From IMG/VR virus record IMGVR_UViG_3300020463_002275, positions 96,001 through 160,000 of that record: a DNA stretch of 64,000 bases, one strand, 5' to 3'. This document shows positions 14,330-46,510 of the stretch, in pieces (position 1 is the first letter of the stretch; each line of letters begins with the position of its first letter). The notes beneath the pieces were generated by a model. That model ran no database searches and was not told the DNA's origin. It saw only the letters and a list, made by a program, of their open reading frames with translations. A program made the translations under genes and the position numbers. This stretch comes from a virus.

Positions 14330-15502
14330 ATGTCAGAACTACTCGAAAGCCGCTGGCAGGAGACTAAAACTGCGTTGCTAGAAGGCCTTAACGGTAATAA
14401 AAAATCCGTTATGGGTGCAACTTTGGAAAATACTAGAAAGTATTTGGCAGAGACTGCAACAGCAGGAACAACTTCAGCCGGTAATGTCGCAACTCTTAAC
14501 AGAGTTATTTTACCAGTAATCAGACGTGTAATGCCAACAGTTATAGCAAATGAACTTGTTGGAGTACAACCGATGACTGGTCCAGTGGGTCAAATCCACA
14601 CACTAAGAGTCCGTTATTCGGACACTTTTAACGCAGGTGCATCAGGTGCAACTGCAGGTGAAGAAGCACTTTCACCATTCAAGATTGCTGAAAGTTATTC
14701 AGGTGCAACTAGTGGTAAAGCAGATGCTACAGCCGCTAAAGAAGGTGTACCAGGAAACAAACTAAGCATCCAGATCCTAAAACAAACAGTTGAAGCGAAA
14801 ACTCGTAAATTGAGTGCTCGTTGGACTTTTGAAGCGGCTCAGGACGCACAGTCACAGCATGGTATTGATGTTGAAGCAGAAATTATGGCGGCACTAGCCC
14901 AAGAAATTACTGCTGAGATTGATCAAGAAGTTCTTGCTTCACTTAGAACACTTAGTGGTACAGCCGTTGAAACATACGACCAAGCCGCAGTAAGTGGTAC
15001 AGCAACTTTTGTTGGTGATGAGCATGCCGCATTGGCAGTTCAAATCAACAGAGCGGCTAACTTAATCGCACAGCGTACAAGACGTGGTGCTGGTAACTAT
15101 GCAGTGGTAAGTCCATTTGCGTTAACAGTACTTCAGTCTGCAACAACTTCAGCGTTCGCAAGAACAACTGAAGGTTCGTTCGAAGCACCAACAAATACTA
15201 AATTTGTAGGTACATTGAACAACGCTATGAAAGTATATGTTGATACATATGCAGGCGATGGTACAGCAGTACTAGTAGGTTACAAAGGTTCATCTGAATC
15301 AGATGCACCAGCGTTCTACTGCCCATACATTCCGCTAATGTCAAGTGGTGTTGTAATGGACCCAGGAACATTCGAACCAGTTGTGAGTTTCATGACTAGA
15401 TACGGATATGTTGAGTTATCAAACACAGCATCGTCACTTGGTAATGCAGGTGACTACCTAGCGAATGTAGCGATTACAAACGCTAACGTATCATTTAGTT
15501 AA
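14330..15502 (+). CDS. gp23: Major capsid protein (gp23 family)
   Basis: VGVQPMTGPVGQIHTLR, AKTRKLSARWTFEAAQD, EITAEIDQE, FYCPYIPL and MTRYG motifs. Confidence 0.96.
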   Translation: MSELLESRWQETKTALLEGLNGNKKSVMGATLENTRKYLAETATAGTTSAGNVATLNRVILPVIRRVMPTVIANELVGVQPMTGPVGQIHTLRVRYSDTFNAGASGATAGEEALSPFKIAESYSGATSGKADATAAKEGVPGNKLSIQILKQTVEAKTRKLSARWTFEAAQDAQSQHGIDVEAEIMAALAQEITAEIDQEVLASLRTLSGTAVETYDQAAVSGTATFVGDEHAALAVQINRAANLIAQRTRRGAGNYAVVSPFALTVLQSATTSAFARTTEGSFEAPTNTKFVGTLNNAMKVYVDTYAGDGTAVLVGYKGSSESDAPAFYCPYIPLMSSGVVMDPGTFEPVVSFMTRYGYVELSNTASSLGNAGDYLANVAITNANVSFS

Positions 15503-15567: not shown

Positions 15568-15614
15568 TACGTTCATCCTACGGGACGGAAGTAGCACTAA
15601 GCGAAGGAACGCAC
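15568..15614 (+). promoter_or_regulatory. Glutamine riboswitch (glnA RNA motif, class I)
   Basis: CGTTC-A-[TCC TACG GGA]-CGGAAGTA-[GC ACTAA GC]-GAAG-GAACG-C matches the glnA aptamer (P1 CGUU../..AACGC, CGGAAGUA and GAAG E-loop strands) with minimal P2/P3. Confidence 0.85.
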
Positions 15615-15637
15615 TTAACTGTAAAAGGGAGAGTGTT

Positions 15638-15790
15638 ATGAATCACAGAGACTTCGAAGCGGCTCGCAAAAAGATCCAAACGAAATTAGCACACAAAGCA
15701 ATACATCGGAAACAGATGGAAAGACCACTGTCAAGACCGCGTTGTGAGAAAAATATACTAAGTTCAGACCCAAGATTGCAAAAAATTTAA
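15638..15790 (+). CDS. 50-aa basic protein downstream of the glutamine riboswitch (not in ORF track)
   Basis: MNHRDFEAARKKIQTKLAHKAIHRKQMERPLSRPRCEKNILSSDPRLQKI*; SD GGGAG about 6 nt upstream. Confidence 0.75.
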   Translation: MNHRDFEAARKKIQTKLAHKAIHRKQMERPLSRPRCEKNILSSDPRLQKI

Positions 15791-15809
15791 TATTTTGGTA
15801 AAAAAAAGG

Positions 15810-15838
15810 TTGACTTTATATATAAAGTCTGTTATATT
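15810..15838 (+). promoter_or_regulatory. sigma70 promoter (TTGACT-N17-TATATT, extended -10 TG) containing an 18-bp palindrome
   Basis: -35 at 15810-15, -10 at 15833-38; GACTTTATATATAAAGTC at 15812-29. Confidence 0.8.
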
Positions 15839-15844
15839 ATATAC

Positions 15845-16061
15845 ATAAGCAACAAAAAAGTAATTAATTTTTGTTTATAGTGCCAGGAAGAGGCTCCTAC
15901 CAAAAGAGTCGAACTGGACTGTCCAGGGGTGGTACCCAGGCTTGGTAGTAGAAATACGCTGAGTCACATCGCACTAACCCGCGGGGATAGGTTGTACGGT
16001 TTAGAAATGGTATTTCGGTCCGTGCTTGTAGGTGTACCCAAGTCCTACCTATTTTGCTTAT
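15845..16061 (+). ncRNA. Unknown ~217-nt structured ncRNA with pseudoknot
   Basis: Bracketed by promoter and terminator; closing stem ATAAGCAA/TTGCTTAT, TAGTGC/GCACTA, CCAG/CTGG, loop CTACCAA complementary to TTGGTAG, ATAGGT/ACCTAT, GTACGG/CCGTGC; no convincing ORF. Confidence 0.7.
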
Positions 16062-16065
16062 AATT

Positions 16066-16090
16066 AAAAAGGCTCTTAGGAGCCTTTTTT
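16066..16090 (+). terminator. Rho-independent terminator
   Basis: AAAAAGGCTC-TTAG-GAGCCTTTTTT. Confidence 0.9.
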
Positions 16091-16091
16091 C

Positions 16092-16120
16092 TTGACAAAT
16101 CTCTCTTTAGAATATAAAAT
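16092..16120 (+). promoter_or_regulatory. sigma70 promoter TTGACA-N17-TAAAAT giving a leaderless btuB-like mRNA
   Basis: Near-consensus elements; ATG 5 nt after the -10; no SD. Confidence 0.8.
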
Positions 16121-16125
16121 ACAGT

Positions 16126-17862
16126 ATGAATAAAATAATAATGTTAGTCACGGTTCTTACCGTGTTTTTTTGTGGCAGAAGTTTGGCCGAACCTTTAGAA
16201 ATAACAATCACAATCCCTAGAACAGCAAGCGATCTAGCAACCAGCACATACTCGTATGATGTTATGGGTGTTGACACTCCAGTTGAAACTTCCAACGGTG
16301 TAAATATTGTACAAAACGGACCTCCAGGACAATCAAGTAGTTTGTTTATAAGAGGAACAGAAAGTGATCATAGTTTAATTTCATTAAACGGAATTGCAAT
16401 CAAAGACCATAGTACACCAAGCGGAGCAGATGATTTAAGTCAACATAACTTGATAGGAATTGACTATTTGACCGTTATAAAGGGTCCTATGAGCAACACA
16501 CACGGGCCTAATGCGGCAGGTGGTGTTATTGATATGCATTCAAGTACTTATGGAAACAGTTATATTGATGTTAGTATAGGCTCTAATAATCTTATCAGCA
16601 AAGAAATAAGTGTAGTTGATAATAATAAAACTGATAGGCATAATTTTAAAGTTACTGCTAATCAAACAACAACAGATGGTATAAGTGTATACGCTGAAGG
16701 AGAAGAAAAAGATCCACATGAAGCAAATACATTTAATATTGGATATGATTACATAGGAAACAAATACATTCTTAAACTAAACAAAATTAAAGACAAAAAT
16801 AATATGAGTCTTGATAGCGGATCAGCAGATGTATTAAATTATACAGGTGATTGGGAATGGAATAACAACCAAATAGATTTCCAAACCAAAAATACAAGAG
16901 TAGTCCTAAACAATAGTAAACATGATAGAACATATACTAAAAACGGAGTAGTTGACAAATACAACAGTGAAAGTAATACATATCTAACACAACATACATT
17001 CAACAAAGATACATATGATTATTCTGTAGGTTGGGAATACAACGAAGCAAGTGCTGACTTTTCAACAAATATAAACAGTTATCAAAGTAGTGTTAACGAA
17101 AACAGATATACAACTGGATTATTTTTTGAAATAGACAAAGAATATTACATGGGTACTATTTTAAGTTTCAGCAGTAGACTTGATAGTATCAGTGACTTTG
17201 ATAATCAGATAAGTTCTAGAATAGGTATATCACATGATGGTTATAGAGCAAGTTATTCACAAGGTTATAGACTACCAACATTATATGAAATGTATGGTAT
17301 TGACAGTTATGGATATCAAGGTAATACAAATTTAAAATCTGAAGATATAGATTCATATGAAGTAGGATATAGAATGGGCAATTTTGATACTGCATTATTT
17401 TACATAGAAGAATCAAATGCAATTACATATTCTAATTCATCTTATGTAAACGTTGCAGAAGGTGGTGAAAGCAAAGGTGCAGAAGTAAGTTACAGTAGAT
17501 CTATTTTAGGGTATGATCTTGCATCAAATGTTACATATACTGAAGCAAGACTTAATAATGGAAGTGAAAAATTACGTAGACCAACTTGGGTAAATAATTC
17601 TAGTATATCAAAAAATATTAATGATTTGAATTACAAAGTGTCAATGAATTATTATGGTGATCATAAAGACATTGACAGTTCAACATTTAAAACAATTGAT
17701 AAAGATAGTATTACTACTTTTGATTTAGAACTAAATCAACTAATGGAAAACAAAATGTTTTACTTAGGATTATATAATATTACAGATGAAAAATATGAAC
17801 AACCAGACGGTTACAACCAATTGGGAATTAATTTCCAAGCAGGTATTAGAATAACAATGTAA
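16126..17862 (+). CDS. btuB: TonB-dependent outer membrane receptor, BtuB (vitamin B12)-like
   Basis: Signal peptide; plug motifs QNGPPGQSSSLFIRGT..DH and IKGPMS..HG..AAGGVI closely parallel BtuB; PTLYEMYG..GNxNLKSE and LYNITDEKYE...GY barrel motifs. Substrate is inferred. Confidence 0.8.
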   Translation: MNKIIMLVTVLTVFFCGRSLAEPLEITITIPRTASDLATSTYSYDVMGVDTPVETSNGVNIVQNGPPGQSSSLFIRGTESDHSLISLNGIAIKDHSTPSGADDLSQHNLIGIDYLTVIKGPMSNTHGPNAAGGVIDMHSSTYGNSYIDVSIGSNNLISKEISVVDNNKTDRHNFKVTANQTTTDGISVYAEGEEKDPHEANTFNIGYDYIGNKYILKLNKIKDKNNMSLDSGSADVLNYTGDWEWNNNQIDFQTKNTRVVLNNSKHDRTYTKNGVVDKYNSESNTYLTQHTFNKDTYDYSVGWEYNEASADFSTNINSYQSSVNENRYTTGLFFEIDKEYYMGTILSFSSRLDSISDFDNQISSRIGISHDGYRASYSQGYRLPTLYEMYGIDSYGYQGNTNLKSEDIDSYEVGYRMGNFDTALFYIEESNAITYSNSSYVNVAEGGESKGAEVSYSRSILGYDLASNVTYTEARLNNGSEKLRRPTWVNNSSISKNINDLNYKVSMNYYGDHKDIDSSTFKTIDKDSITTFDLELNQLMENKMFYLGLYNITDEKYEQPDGYNQLGINFQAGIRITM

Positions 17863-18338
17863 TGAATAATTTATATTGGTTCTTAGGATTTATATTAGTA
17901 TTAGCATTAAGTAGAATTATACCACATCCACCAAACTTCACTCCAATAATTGCTGTGGCTGTTTTTGCACCAAGAATAATCAGGCACATTCCAACAGTAA
18001 TTTGTGCAACATTACTTGCTATGTTTATAGCAGATATGTATTGGGGATTGCATAGTTATATGATATGGACTTACAGCAGTATTGCTTTGTGTACGCTTTT
18101 AGCAATAAAAGTAAGATTACTAACTATGTCTGTTGTAGGACCTATATTATTCTTTATTGTAACTAACTTTGCAGTGTGGACAAGTGGATACTATGGATTA
18201 ACTATTCAAGGCTTGTTAGCATGTTATATAGCGGCAATACCGTTCTTTTATATGACACTGTTAAGCACATTAGTATACGTTTCTTCTTTCTATATTATCG
18301 AAAAAATGGTGATCACGCAGGTTAAACATCGTACTTAA
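17862..18338 (+). CDS. DUF6580-like integral membrane protein (putative ECF S-component-type vitamin transporter)
   Basis: SRIIPHPPNFTPI motif, FFIVTNFAVW, CYIAAIPFF; 5-6 hydrophobic helices; coupled to btuB (TAATG). Confidence 0.75.
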   Translation: MNNLYWFLGFILVLALSRIIPHPPNFTPIIAVAVFAPRIIRHIPTVICATLLAMFIADMYWGLHSYMIWTYSSIALCTLLAIKVRLLTMSVVGPILFFIVTNFAVWTSGYYGLTIQGLLACYIAAIPFFYMTLLSTLVYVSSFYIIEKMVITQVKHRT

Positions 18339-44742: not shown

Positions 44743-45699
44743 ATGCCAGGATTAAAAGCATTATTAGCAAGCAGAGCGTCCCCGTTCACTGAGACAAACC
44801 TTGAAAAAGGTAAGGTATGGTCGTACTCTAACATTGCTACATATTCAACGTATCCAGGTTGCTTTTGTTGGATATCACCAGGATCAGGAGCAGTTACATT
44901 AGAAGTATGGGGTGCAGGCGGAGGCGGTTCGAGAATGTGTTGTTGTTCAGCAACAATATCAGGTAACTCAGGCGCATACGCAAGAAAAGAACTTACAGTA
45001 GCATCAGGCTGTTGGATCTGCGGACACGCAGGCAAAAGTTGTCGAAATGGTAGTCTCTGTCATAGAGGCTGTTCAGAACCAGGCAAAGTTTGTTGGACAG
45101 GTAACAGCGGATCAAATGGCTGTATGTGTGCTCAGGGCGGTTGGTCAGGAGCAAGTTGGTGTACAACAGGAACTGCACGTAGATGTTGTTTCTCAGCAAA
45201 CAGTTGGTGCTATACAGGATACAGTGGCTATTGTGGTCTTGTATGTAATGCATGTAACAACAGTTGGAAAAACAGTGCATACGGCGGAGATATCAATCGA
45301 GGCGGTGTAAACAGTTGTGTAACTTTTTGGCATTGTTATCCAAACTGTAACTGTTCAACTATCCATCACACTGCATTGCCACCAGGCATGTTTAGTGAAT
45401 GTGGCGGTGTTGCATCTTATAGTTTAGATGATGATAACGGTCACGGTAGATGGTCTGGACAGGCACTAAATGGTTACCAATCGGCACTAAATTCTCTGTC
45501 AAGAATGCCAGGCGGTGGTACATATTGGTCAAACTGTTGGAACGGTGTTCGAGCATGTGGTTGTTATGATACGCAGGGTTGTTCAATGTATGTGCCACAC
45601 GGTTCAGGTGGTCCAGCGGCGACTCCATGTTCGGGTGTTAGAGATAACGGCTGGGCAGGTGGCGATGCCTTAATTAGAATCAAATACTTAGAATCTTAA
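44743..45699 (+). CDS. Cys-rich glycine-rich-domain virion protein (paralog 3)
   Basis: 318 aa, 30 Cys. Confidence 0.7.
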   Translation: MPGLKALLASRASPFTETNLEKGKVWSYSNIATYSTYPGCFCWISPGSGAVTLEVWGAGGGGSRMCCCSATISGNSGAYARKELTVASGCWICGHAGKSCRNGSLCHRGCSEPGKVCWTGNSGSNGCMCAQGGWSGASWCTTGTARRCCFSANSWCYTGYSGYCGLVCNACNNSWKNSAYGGDINRGGVNSCVTFWHCYPNCNCSTIHHTALPPGMFSECGGVASYSLDDDNGHGRWSGQALNGYQSALNSLSRMPGGGTYWSNCWNGVRACGCYDTQGCSMYVPHGSGGPAATPCSGVRDNGWAGGDALIRIKYLES

Positions 45700-45738
45700 T
45701 GGAAATCTTAATAAATAAAGAGTAATGGAGATATAGAA

Positions 45739-46434
45739 ATGAACAAAACTTTTACAGTAACTTACGCAGATGAGCCGTATAAAACGACCACTGCGAAAGG
45801 AAATACGTTTGAATGTACGTATACAGGTCCAAGATGGATCTTAGCACAAGTCGACAAAGATGACGACCAAGTTAGAGAAGCAGGACGTAGTGATTCGTCA
45901 GCAGACGATACAGCGTTAGATGCATCTGGTTACGAGCCAGATGAATATGATTACATCGTAATGGATGCTAACGAAAGCGACGATATGGCTATGCGTTGTG
46001 CATTTATTACAGATGAATACACACACCCAGATGTAGCAGATTATTCAGAAGAAATCACTGATGCAGATGGCGTCAAGTACACATGGGAACATGTATATGA
46101 AGGTACAACTGGCATGTTAGCACACATTTATGTAAGTGACAGCCTATTATACAATCATGAATCAAAAACTTGGAGAAATCCGGTTTTACGTGAGCATAAC
46201 AACGCAAGAGATGATACATTGGCTACATGGGCCGCAATGGCCGCAGGTATTAGACGTGCATTATCATCAGCAGGTGACGCACACAATAACTTAACAGATG
46301 CCGAAAAGAAAACATTAGGTGATCATGCTACATGGTTAGAGTCTATTCCAACAAAATATGCAGATATTAATCATTGGAAAATTCCTTATCCAGATACAGT
46401 ATTACCAAATTATGTAGATCCAGCGGATCAATAA
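45739..46434 (+). CDS. Putative tail fibre assembly chaperone
   Basis: C-terminal ...ATWLESIP...W.IPYP resembles the fibre chaperone motif (W..YRQALRDLP...WP); follows the Cys-rich genes. Confidence 0.45.
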   Translation: MNKTFTVTYADEPYKTTTAKGNTFECTYTGPRWILAQVDKDDDQVREAGRSDSSADDTALDASGYEPDEYDYIVMDANESDDMAMRCAFITDEYTHPDVADYSEEITDADGVKYTWEHVYEGTTGMLAHIYVSDSLLYNHESKTWRNPVLREHNNARDDTLATWAAMAAGIRRALSSAGDAHNNLTDAEKKTLGDHATWLESIPTKYADINHWKIPYPDTVLPNYVDPADQ

Positions 46435-46460
46435 AAACTAAAATTTCTATATCCAATCTT

Positions 46461-46510
46461 AATCGGATTCAACAGTATTTTTTATAACTATTGTTGAGTC
46501 CGATTTTTTT
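46461..46510 (+). terminator. Strong hairpin plus U-tract terminator
   Basis: AATCGGATTCAACAG / TTGTTGAGTCCGATT (15 bp with 2 G-U) then TTTTT. Confidence 0.75.

Follow-up and report, generated by a model that had tools for sequence, protein, structure and literature searches.

The window analysed here is a 64,000-nucleotide (nt) stretch, positions 96,001 to 160,000 of the IMG/VR virus record IMGVR_UViG_3300020463_002275. It encodes a structured RNA between a gp23-type major capsid gene and a TonB-dependent receptor gene. The RNA is real and strongly structured, its family has already been described, and it is almost certainly a diverged member of the manA RNAs (RF01745). The unusual point is its setting: it stands as a small gene by itself, equipped with a promoter and a terminator, and not as the leader of a protein gene. 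Downstream of the capsid gene, the order is a glutamine riboswitch with a 50-codon open reading frame (ORF), a promoter, the manA RNA, a terminator, and a second promoter with the genes that follow it:

14330-15502: gp23-type major capsid gene, ending ~340 nt upstream of the manA RNA
15568-15615, + strand: glutamine riboswitch (RF01739), 48.4 bits against a cut-off of 35
15810-15838, + strand: sigma70-type (T4 early-like) promoter TTGACT-17 nt-TATATT, 10 of 12 consensus matches, with TG before the -10 element
16066-16090, + strand: intrinsic terminator, consisting of an A-tract, GGCUC-UUAG-GAGCC and U6 (hairpin 16071-16090, -7.7 kcal/mol)
16092-16120, + strand: separate promoter TTGACA-17-TAAAAT of the next gene, 11 of 12 consensus matches
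16126-17862, + strand: TonB-dependent receptor gene (Plug and barrel, 578 amino acids)

In a permissive scan of 701 nt, positions 15853-16058 match RF01745 over model positions 1-192 of 192, with 47.5 bits and an E-value of 5e-11. A default Rfam scan of the whole window at gathering scores listed only the glutamine riboswitch and did not report manA. The family identity is secure because the counterpart in Pelagibacter phage Mosig, 74% identical over 235 nt (blastn), scores 64.0 bits and lies above the cut-off, because 11 of 18 related viral contigs also pass it (55.7-73.7 bits), and because a covariance model built from the window's clade only (R1) recovers canonical manA RNAs. R1 found 46 of them, at 31-63 bits (E 1e-9 to 1e-22), among 100 loci that had been picked beforehand by a canonical-manA consensus sequence pattern. 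The clade straddles the cut-off, which is a working threshold and no structural trait, so that Rfam captures this subclade only partly. The loop motifs of the family are also present, namely GUGGUA in L5, ACUAACCC in L7, GAAA in L6 and the purine-rich internal loop GGAAGA/GAA between P3a and P3b. The initial annotation, made from the letters of the window, had recognised no known family and had proposed a new RNA. It was mistaken on both counts, since the Rfam check that it had itself named as decisive against novelty, should a described family match, returned manA (RF01745).

manA RNAs were found in marine metagenomes, T4-like cyanophages and two gamma-proteobacteria, where they precede genes of many kinds, and were rated probable riboswitches (Weinberg et al. 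2010, PMC2864571). Rfam labels the family cis-reg and corrected its structure in release 14.3. The relatives of the window's RNA, marine viral contigs and phage Mosig, fit the carriers of the family, marine T4-like phages and gamma-proteobacteria. Among cultured phages, blastn matched the RNA only in Mosig; the matches in phage Melnitz belong to the glutamine riboswitch stretch. The Mosig copy (MT647606.1, 108156-108391; L001:4001-4236) carries no GenBank annotation and lies directly before a rubrerythrin gene. R1, run with default filters over the whole 181,934-bp record (the window and segments L002-L008), found only this copy. An RF01745 genome search returned nothing in the window's genome, but also nothing in 14 control genomes, and carries no weight. 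A cobalamin riboswitch was considered because a BtuB-like TonB-dependent receptor follows, and was rejected, as no cobalamin family appeared even at E-values up to 10. Two small ORFs (15929-16063 on the + strand and 15875-15967 on the - strand) were rejected as coding sequences, since variation tracks base pairs and loop indels and not the reading frame.

Relatives were collected by two IMG/VR pattern scans and R1, which gave 142 matches, ~90 of them distinct. The second pattern, GTGCNNNGAAG…GTCACATC, led to the RNA in only 21 of 87 newly fetched loci, the remainder being chance matches. Pairs were counted in an alignment (A1) of 70 distinct sequences on the Rfam manA fold with one added helix, P0. 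The helix names used here agree with those in the supplement of a recent preprint on manA structures (10.64898/2026.07.01.735769). Every helix of the manA architecture is present: P1, P2 enclosing the P3 arm, the P4 junction with P5, P6 and P7, then P8 and P9. The structured core measures 218 nt and contains the following elements:

15845-15852 / 16054-16061, + strand: closing helix P0 (ATAAGCAA with TTGCTTAT; 3' strand UUGCUUAU), whose first base is the predicted +1
15853-15873, + strand: hairpin P1 (15853-58 with 15868-73), 9-nt loop L1 AGUAAUUAA, five of six pairs doubly changed
15876-15880 / 16049-16053, + strand: P2 (UAUAG with CUAUU), enclosing the junction of P3, P4, P8 and P9
15883-15917, + strand: P3 arm, with P3a CCAG/CUGG (15883-86 with 15914-17), P3b GGCUC/GAGUC (15892-96 with 15906-10), purine-rich internal loop GAAGA/GAA and apical loop L3 CUACCAAAA
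15919-15990, + strand: P4 domain, in which P4 CUGUCC/GGAUAG (15919-24 with 15985-90) closes the junction of P5, P6 and P7
15926-15937, + strand: P5 (15926-28 with 15935-37), covarying, loop GUGGUA
15939-15965, + strand: long P6 (27 nt), covarying, with P6a GGCUU/GAGUC (15939-43 with 15961-65), mid-P6 GGU(A)/GCU, P6b GUA/UAC (15948-50 with 15955-57) and GNRA loop GAAA (15951-15954)
15970-15983, + strand: P7 (15970-72 with 15981-83), covarying, loop ACUAACCC
15994-16025, + strand: P8 arm (15994-99 with 16020-25), GUACGG/CCGUGC, inner GAA/UUU, L8 AUGGUA at 16007-16012
16028-16048, + strand: hairpin P9 (16028-32 with 16044-48), GUAGG/CCUAC, 11-nt loop L9 UGUACCCAAGU

Across the 70 sequences, 93.1% of the cells are paired and 42 of the 64 pairs show double changes. 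None of 500 shuffles reaches this level, and sliding the partners by 1-3 columns leaves 33-48% paired. The fold of the window sequence itself has a z-score of -2.7 relative to shuffles. Compensatory variants of P2 include GUGUAG/CUACAC, GUGUCG/CGACAC, GCUUUG/CAAAGC and UUAG/CUAA. P3a is 100% paired with three of four pairs doubly changed, and P3b 99% paired with five of five; in L3, ACCA is invariant. P4 is 98.8% paired (five of six pairs doubly changed), all six pairs of the outer P8 stem are doubly changed, and P9, paired in every sequence, occurs as GGAGG/CCUCC and GUGGG/CCCAC. Much of the initial annotation's local pairing is thereby borne out, with covariation behind it: CCAG/CTGG and GGCTC/GAGTC with their purine-rich internal loop (P3a, P3b), GGG/CCC (P5), GTA-GAAA-TAC (P6b and L6) and GTACGG/CCGTGC (P8a).

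The added helix P0 is neither part of the Rfam manA model nor of the constructs studied by electron cryo-microscopy (cryo-EM). It shows compensatory changes in five of eight pairs (for instance ATAAGC/GCTTAT, AATGC/GCATT, ATATGC/GCATAT and ATAGC/GCTAT), and is a clade-specific helix that pairs the very start of the transcript with the final bases ahead of the terminator. A closing helix starting at the first transcribed base had been proposed initially, and it lies one base off the place implied there. P0 is missing from copies that have no promoter of their own and sit directly behind a transfer-messenger RNA (tmRNA) gene. In this promoter-less, P0-less subtype, 0-11 nt separate a permuted alpha-type tmRNA gene from the start of manA (L181:2879-3169, L029:3942-4268, L129:8395-8720 and L149:85-652), which suggests co-transcription with the tmRNA.

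As read from the DNA, the locus has the layout of a small gene standing alone, with a host-type promoter, a predicted +1 at 15845 and a predicted end at ~16090. The -10 element of TTGACT-17-TATATT ends 6 nt before 15845, in line with the start proposed in the initial annotation. Among 95 distinct related loci scored for promoter and terminator, 89 have a TTGnnn-16/17-TAnnnT site at the same place, and in 86 the -10 element ends 5-8 nt before P0; this fixed spacing puts the expected +1 on or beside the first base of P0. The terminator directly after the RNA, likewise anticipated, is GGCTC-TTAG-GAGCC followed by T6 at 16071-16090; it was absent from the listing of a consensus scan and was found by a separate analysis. 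A terminator-like hairpin lies at most 70 nt 3' of the RNA in 73 of the 95 loci, compared with 9 of 300 random 70-nt windows (3%), and in three more loci the U-run behind the hairpin is interrupted. The element is an RNA gene and not a coding stretch. The positions of promoter and terminator are conserved among the relatives, but the sequences of the terminators differ. The placement in a 5' untranslated region that is known from the family is not seen in the window, where the terminator and a separate promoter stand between the RNA and the next gene. The first downstream ORFs of the related loci fall into 16 unrelated clusters. Named among the ten largest are an FCCH-domain protein, mannose-6-P isomerase/cytidylyltransferase, rubrerythrin, redoxin, the TonB receptor, gp32, a PKD-domain protein and radical SAM. 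The TonB-dependent receptor gene lies 3' of manA in only three related loci; in the window it overlaps a DUF6580 gene by one base (16092-18338 including the promoter) and has no riboswitch of its own.

Cryo-EM structures of five manA RNAs have been described, all pentamer-based, as decamers, an octamer or a 60-subunit cage (bioRxiv preprint, July 2026, 10.64898/2026.07.01.735769). In this work, the long-P6 Photobacterium RNAs A28C and A767 are held together by L5-L7' and L3-L8' contacts and by docking of the GNRA loop onto P6' at its helical middle; in the short-P6 RNAs A0F1 and 67AA the contacts are L5-L7' and L8-L9', with L1-L1' in addition in A0F1. In the window's copy, L3 and L8 are complementary over 5 nt (UACCA/UGGUA), L8 and L9 over 4 nt, and L5 and L7 over 3 nt (4 in most relatives); by sequence, these complements fit pairing within one molecule as well as between molecules. 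L1 reads AG-UAAUUA-A and contains the 6-nt palindrome UAAUUA at 15861-15866. A palindrome of at least 6 nt is present in 66 of 90 distinct relatives (UAAUUA in 35, UAGCUA in 20, AAUUAAUU in 10 and UUAUAA in 1). It is kept through double changes, from UAAUUA to UAGCUA, as a homotypic loop contact would require.

From the matching loop complements and the palindromic L1 we infer oligomerisation as the mechanism. The manA RNA would then act not in cis on its neighbour but as a self-assembling folded particle, forming pentamer-based closed oligomers as the long-P6 Photobacterium RNAs do. L5 (GGUA) would pair with L7' (ACC) and L3 (UACCA) with L8' (UGGUA), the GAAA loop L6 would dock on the helical middle of P6', and the palindromic L1 (UAAUUA) would be available for a homotypic L1-L1' contact. 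The initial annotation had suggested multimeric, intermolecular loop pairing as one option, and this fits the preprint. A diverged manA RNA, encoded as a stand-alone gene and forming a self-assembling particle, is the reading that we consider probable as a whole. By analogy with the structurally characterized members, self-assembly may also be the mode of action in vivo, to which we give slightly less than even confidence. More tentatively, and with clear doubt, we speculate that the manA of this clade is no riboswitch at all, but a P0-sealed RNA with a T4 early-like promoter and a palindromic L1 that assembles in the cell into a closed particle (decamer or cage) with a role of its own, for example in sequestering or scaffolding.

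The fold originally proposed was that of a new, unclassified RNA with two domains, closed by TAGTGC/GCACTA and ATAGGT/ACCTAT, and an intramolecular pseudoknot between L3 and TTGGTAG. All three complementarities exist in the window, yet the RNA matches RF01745, and the two domain helices show almost no compensatory change and clash with richly covarying ones. TAGTGC/GCACTA has no double change at all, its middle pair is present in 22 of 70 sequences, and it competes with P2, P3a and P7; G15971 changes (P7 stem CGCUC to CACUC) while its proposed partner C15883 stays. ATAGGT/ACCTAT (15987-92 with 16047-52) is 77% paired and would have to recruit the 3' strands of P4, P9 and P2, helices that are themselves 83-100% paired and rich in double changes. 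The loop match between CTACCAA (15897-15903) and TTGGTAG (15942-15948) holds as a perfect complement: it is 94% paired across the close clade, and a perfect complement of the 7-mer at the place of TTGGTAG arises in 58 of 2000 dinucleotide shuffles (2.9%). Its reading as a pseudoknot has no support from covariation. TTGGTAG lies in the middle of P6, which reads UGGUU, UUGUA, UUAUC, UUACC or CAAAG in relatives fetched without fixing this site, while L3 still keeps UACCA. In L183-type relatives, which have the UUGUA variant, the change of G15944 (G44) to U is matched by that of U15960 (U60) to A across P6, and the pair G48-C57 becomes C-G. Because these changes are compensated within P6, its middle acts as a helix and not as the conserved partner of L3. 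We regard the originally proposed structure as very improbable.

Regulation in cis is a more serious alternative. Here, the structured domain would bind a metabolite as part of a riboswitch or leader, and its expression platform, the hairpin at 16071-16090, would control whether transcription continues into the TonB receptor gene. The Rfam label and the probable-riboswitch rating (Weinberg et al. 2010, PMC2864571) favour this, as does the complex, aptamer-like fold with a terminator directly behind it, a common riboswitch layout. Mosig-type loci also look cis-regulatory: there the RNA lies in a 5' untranslated region, a start codon follows it at 7-16 nt, a Shine-Dalgarno-like AGGA is present, and the terminator is missing. 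In the minimum-energy fold of the window, however, P0 seals the domain and the terminator forms alongside it, with no competing, mutually exclusive helix; the terminator stems of the relatives are unrelated in sequence, so that no conserved anti-terminator is apparent by inspection. Moreover, a near-consensus promoter (11 of 12) separates the terminator from the TonB receptor gene, the downstream genes form 16 unrelated clusters, and the cryo-EM preprint (10.64898/2026.07.01.735769) has RNA-only assemblies and reports no ligand. A riboswitch is therefore unlikely in our view. A free-standing monomer acting in trans, for instance by binding or sequestering a host or phage protein, with self-assembly having no role, is in line with the stand-alone layout; a protein or an RNA could make contact at the invariant single-stranded ACCA, UGGUA and AGUCC, and no loop-loop covariation is seen within the clade. 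Yet members of the family self-assemble in vitro, the contact-making loops are mutually complementary in the window's copy too, and an L1 palindrome kept through double changes suggests a homotypic RNA-RNA contact, which makes the monomer a little less probable still than the riboswitch.

Several observations weigh against the self-assembling particle as well. The window's copy scores below the gathering score of RF01745 (47.5 versus 55.2 bits), and the Mosig-type subclade departs from the stand-alone layout as described above. The assembly of manA reported in a preprint without peer review (10.64898/2026.07.01.735769) was seen in vitro, at high RNA concentration, and with members of the family other than the window's copy. 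None of the loop-loop contacts covaries within the clade; for L3/mid-P6, L3/L8 and L5/L7, sequences vary too little within the clade, some of whose members were chosen by a pattern that fixes L5 and mid-P6. In 21 of 90 relatives L8 is AUGGCAU, which leaves only three contiguous pairs with L3. UGGUA occurs three times in the RNA, in L5 (15930), mid-P6 and L8 (16008), so that the partner of L3 is not decidable among three candidates from the sequence. No relative lacks runs of at least four L3 pairs with both mid-P6 and L8, and this persistence of pairing with one or the other may be a phylogenetic accident. The threefold UGGUA (24 of 2000 shuffles) was discarded as a statistic, since 82% of shuffles contain three copies of some 5-mer. 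Finally, the RNA is covered by Logan contigs from RNA libraries of four marine studies: one is identical over 15833-16020, a second over 15908-16042, and further ones span 15792-16090, but DNA carry-over is possible and contigs do not define the ends. The predicted start is not confirmed, since one contig (15792-15854) crosses it; no contig of the four runs reaches beyond 16099, where missing cover proves nothing. These contigs are a weak hint that the RNA is present, and do not prove transcription or its ends.

The long-P6 Photobacterium RNAs (A28C and A767) resemble the window's RNA in helices P1-P9, in the purine-rich module between P3a and P3b, in the long P6 with a GNRA cap, in a large L3 with a 5-nt complement in L8, in the complementarity of L5 and L7, and in a near-identical L9/P9 (…CCAAAGUCCUACCU…). 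At the places where the window has UACCA/UGGUA in L3 and L8, the printed Photobacterium constructs have UCAGC/GCUGA (10.64898/2026.07.01.735769). The window's RNA further differs in its extra P0, in a palindromic L1 that is not of the GCGACGG type, and in being a phage-borne, stand-alone gene with promoter and terminator that scores below the gathering cut-off. With the short-P6 canonical manA RNAs of cyanophages and marine metagenomes (A0F1 and 67AA), it shares the core fold, AGUG after P2, GGUGGU in L5, ACC(A) in L7 and T4-like marine phage carriers. The canonical RNAs have a P6 of 10-16 nt, a small L3 and a 5-7-nt complement between L8 and L9 that covaries (CUGUA/UACAG, AAUGUA/UACAUU, UUAUGU/ACAUAA), whereas the window's clade has a large L3 and, in nearly all copies, only 2-4 L8/L9 pairs.

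ROOL, GOLLD and raiA are large structured non-coding RNAs of bacteria and phages, some of them phage-borne, that form closed, symmetric RNA-only multimers. Their sequences and folds are unrelated to manA, and they measure several hundred nt, compared with the 218-nt core here; none of their Rfam models matches within the window. The dimerisation initiation site of HIV-1 has a 9-nt loop in which a 6-nt palindrome is preceded by two purines and followed by an A. L1 of the window (AG-UAAUUA-A) has the same 2+6+1 format, without homology. Its palindrome consists of A-U pairs only and would be weak alone, and an L1-L1' contact is proposed solely by reference to that of manA_A0F1.

The carrier of the RNA is a T4-like marine myophage. 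The gp23 product is 68-71% identical to capsid proteins of ~350-kb jumbo T4-like phages, the closest relatives being phages of Vibrio, Sinorhizobium, Xanthomonas, Erwinia and Serratia. Together with a CheckV completeness of 51% for the record at 182 kb, this likeness suggests a jumbo marine phage and not a pelagimyophage. The glutamine riboswitch lies directly 3' of the capsid gene's terminator and is followed by the 50-codon ORF, which has no Pfam match (15568-15790 in all). In 8 of 18 related loci scanned, manA is likewise preceded by such a riboswitch, at a distance of a few hundred nt. In the Methylophilales phage Melnitz (MZ577095-MZ577098, ~45147-46472), a feature annotated 'SsrA' covers a stretch that matches 15569-15641 at 88%.

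Some relatives carry a freshwater-2 RNA (RF02980, 51-75 bits) at most ~100 nt downstream of manA (L010:4319-4402, L011:6624-6706, L059:4425-4507, L183:8197-8282, L191:6073-6156, L208:468-550 and L167:114-183); the window has no RF02980. With the glutamine riboswitch and manA, it forms a small island of structured RNAs in these relatives. Twenty of 119 IMG/VR loci found with the first pattern end inside or at the manA RNA (among them L020, L035, L037, L044, L057, L058, L074, L075, L093, L116 and L121), and many matches are truncated on the 3' side; this would be expected if metagenome assemblies break at a conserved RNA in variable flanks.

The family is not new, and the value of the finding lies in its context. 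Since 2010, manA has stood as an orphan riboswitch candidate, and the decamers and 60-mer cage of the preprint were obtained in vitro, without attached biology. In the window and ~140 related viral contigs, the RNA appears as a discrete gene with a conserved promoter, interchangeable terminators and unrelated neighbours, which argues against cis-regulation and for a self-sufficient particle. The unannotated copy in Mosig, and a clade that Rfam partly misses, offer an entry point to the role of this RNA in infection. If it does assemble in the infected cell, manA would be a phage-encoded RNA nanostructure with a function in vivo.

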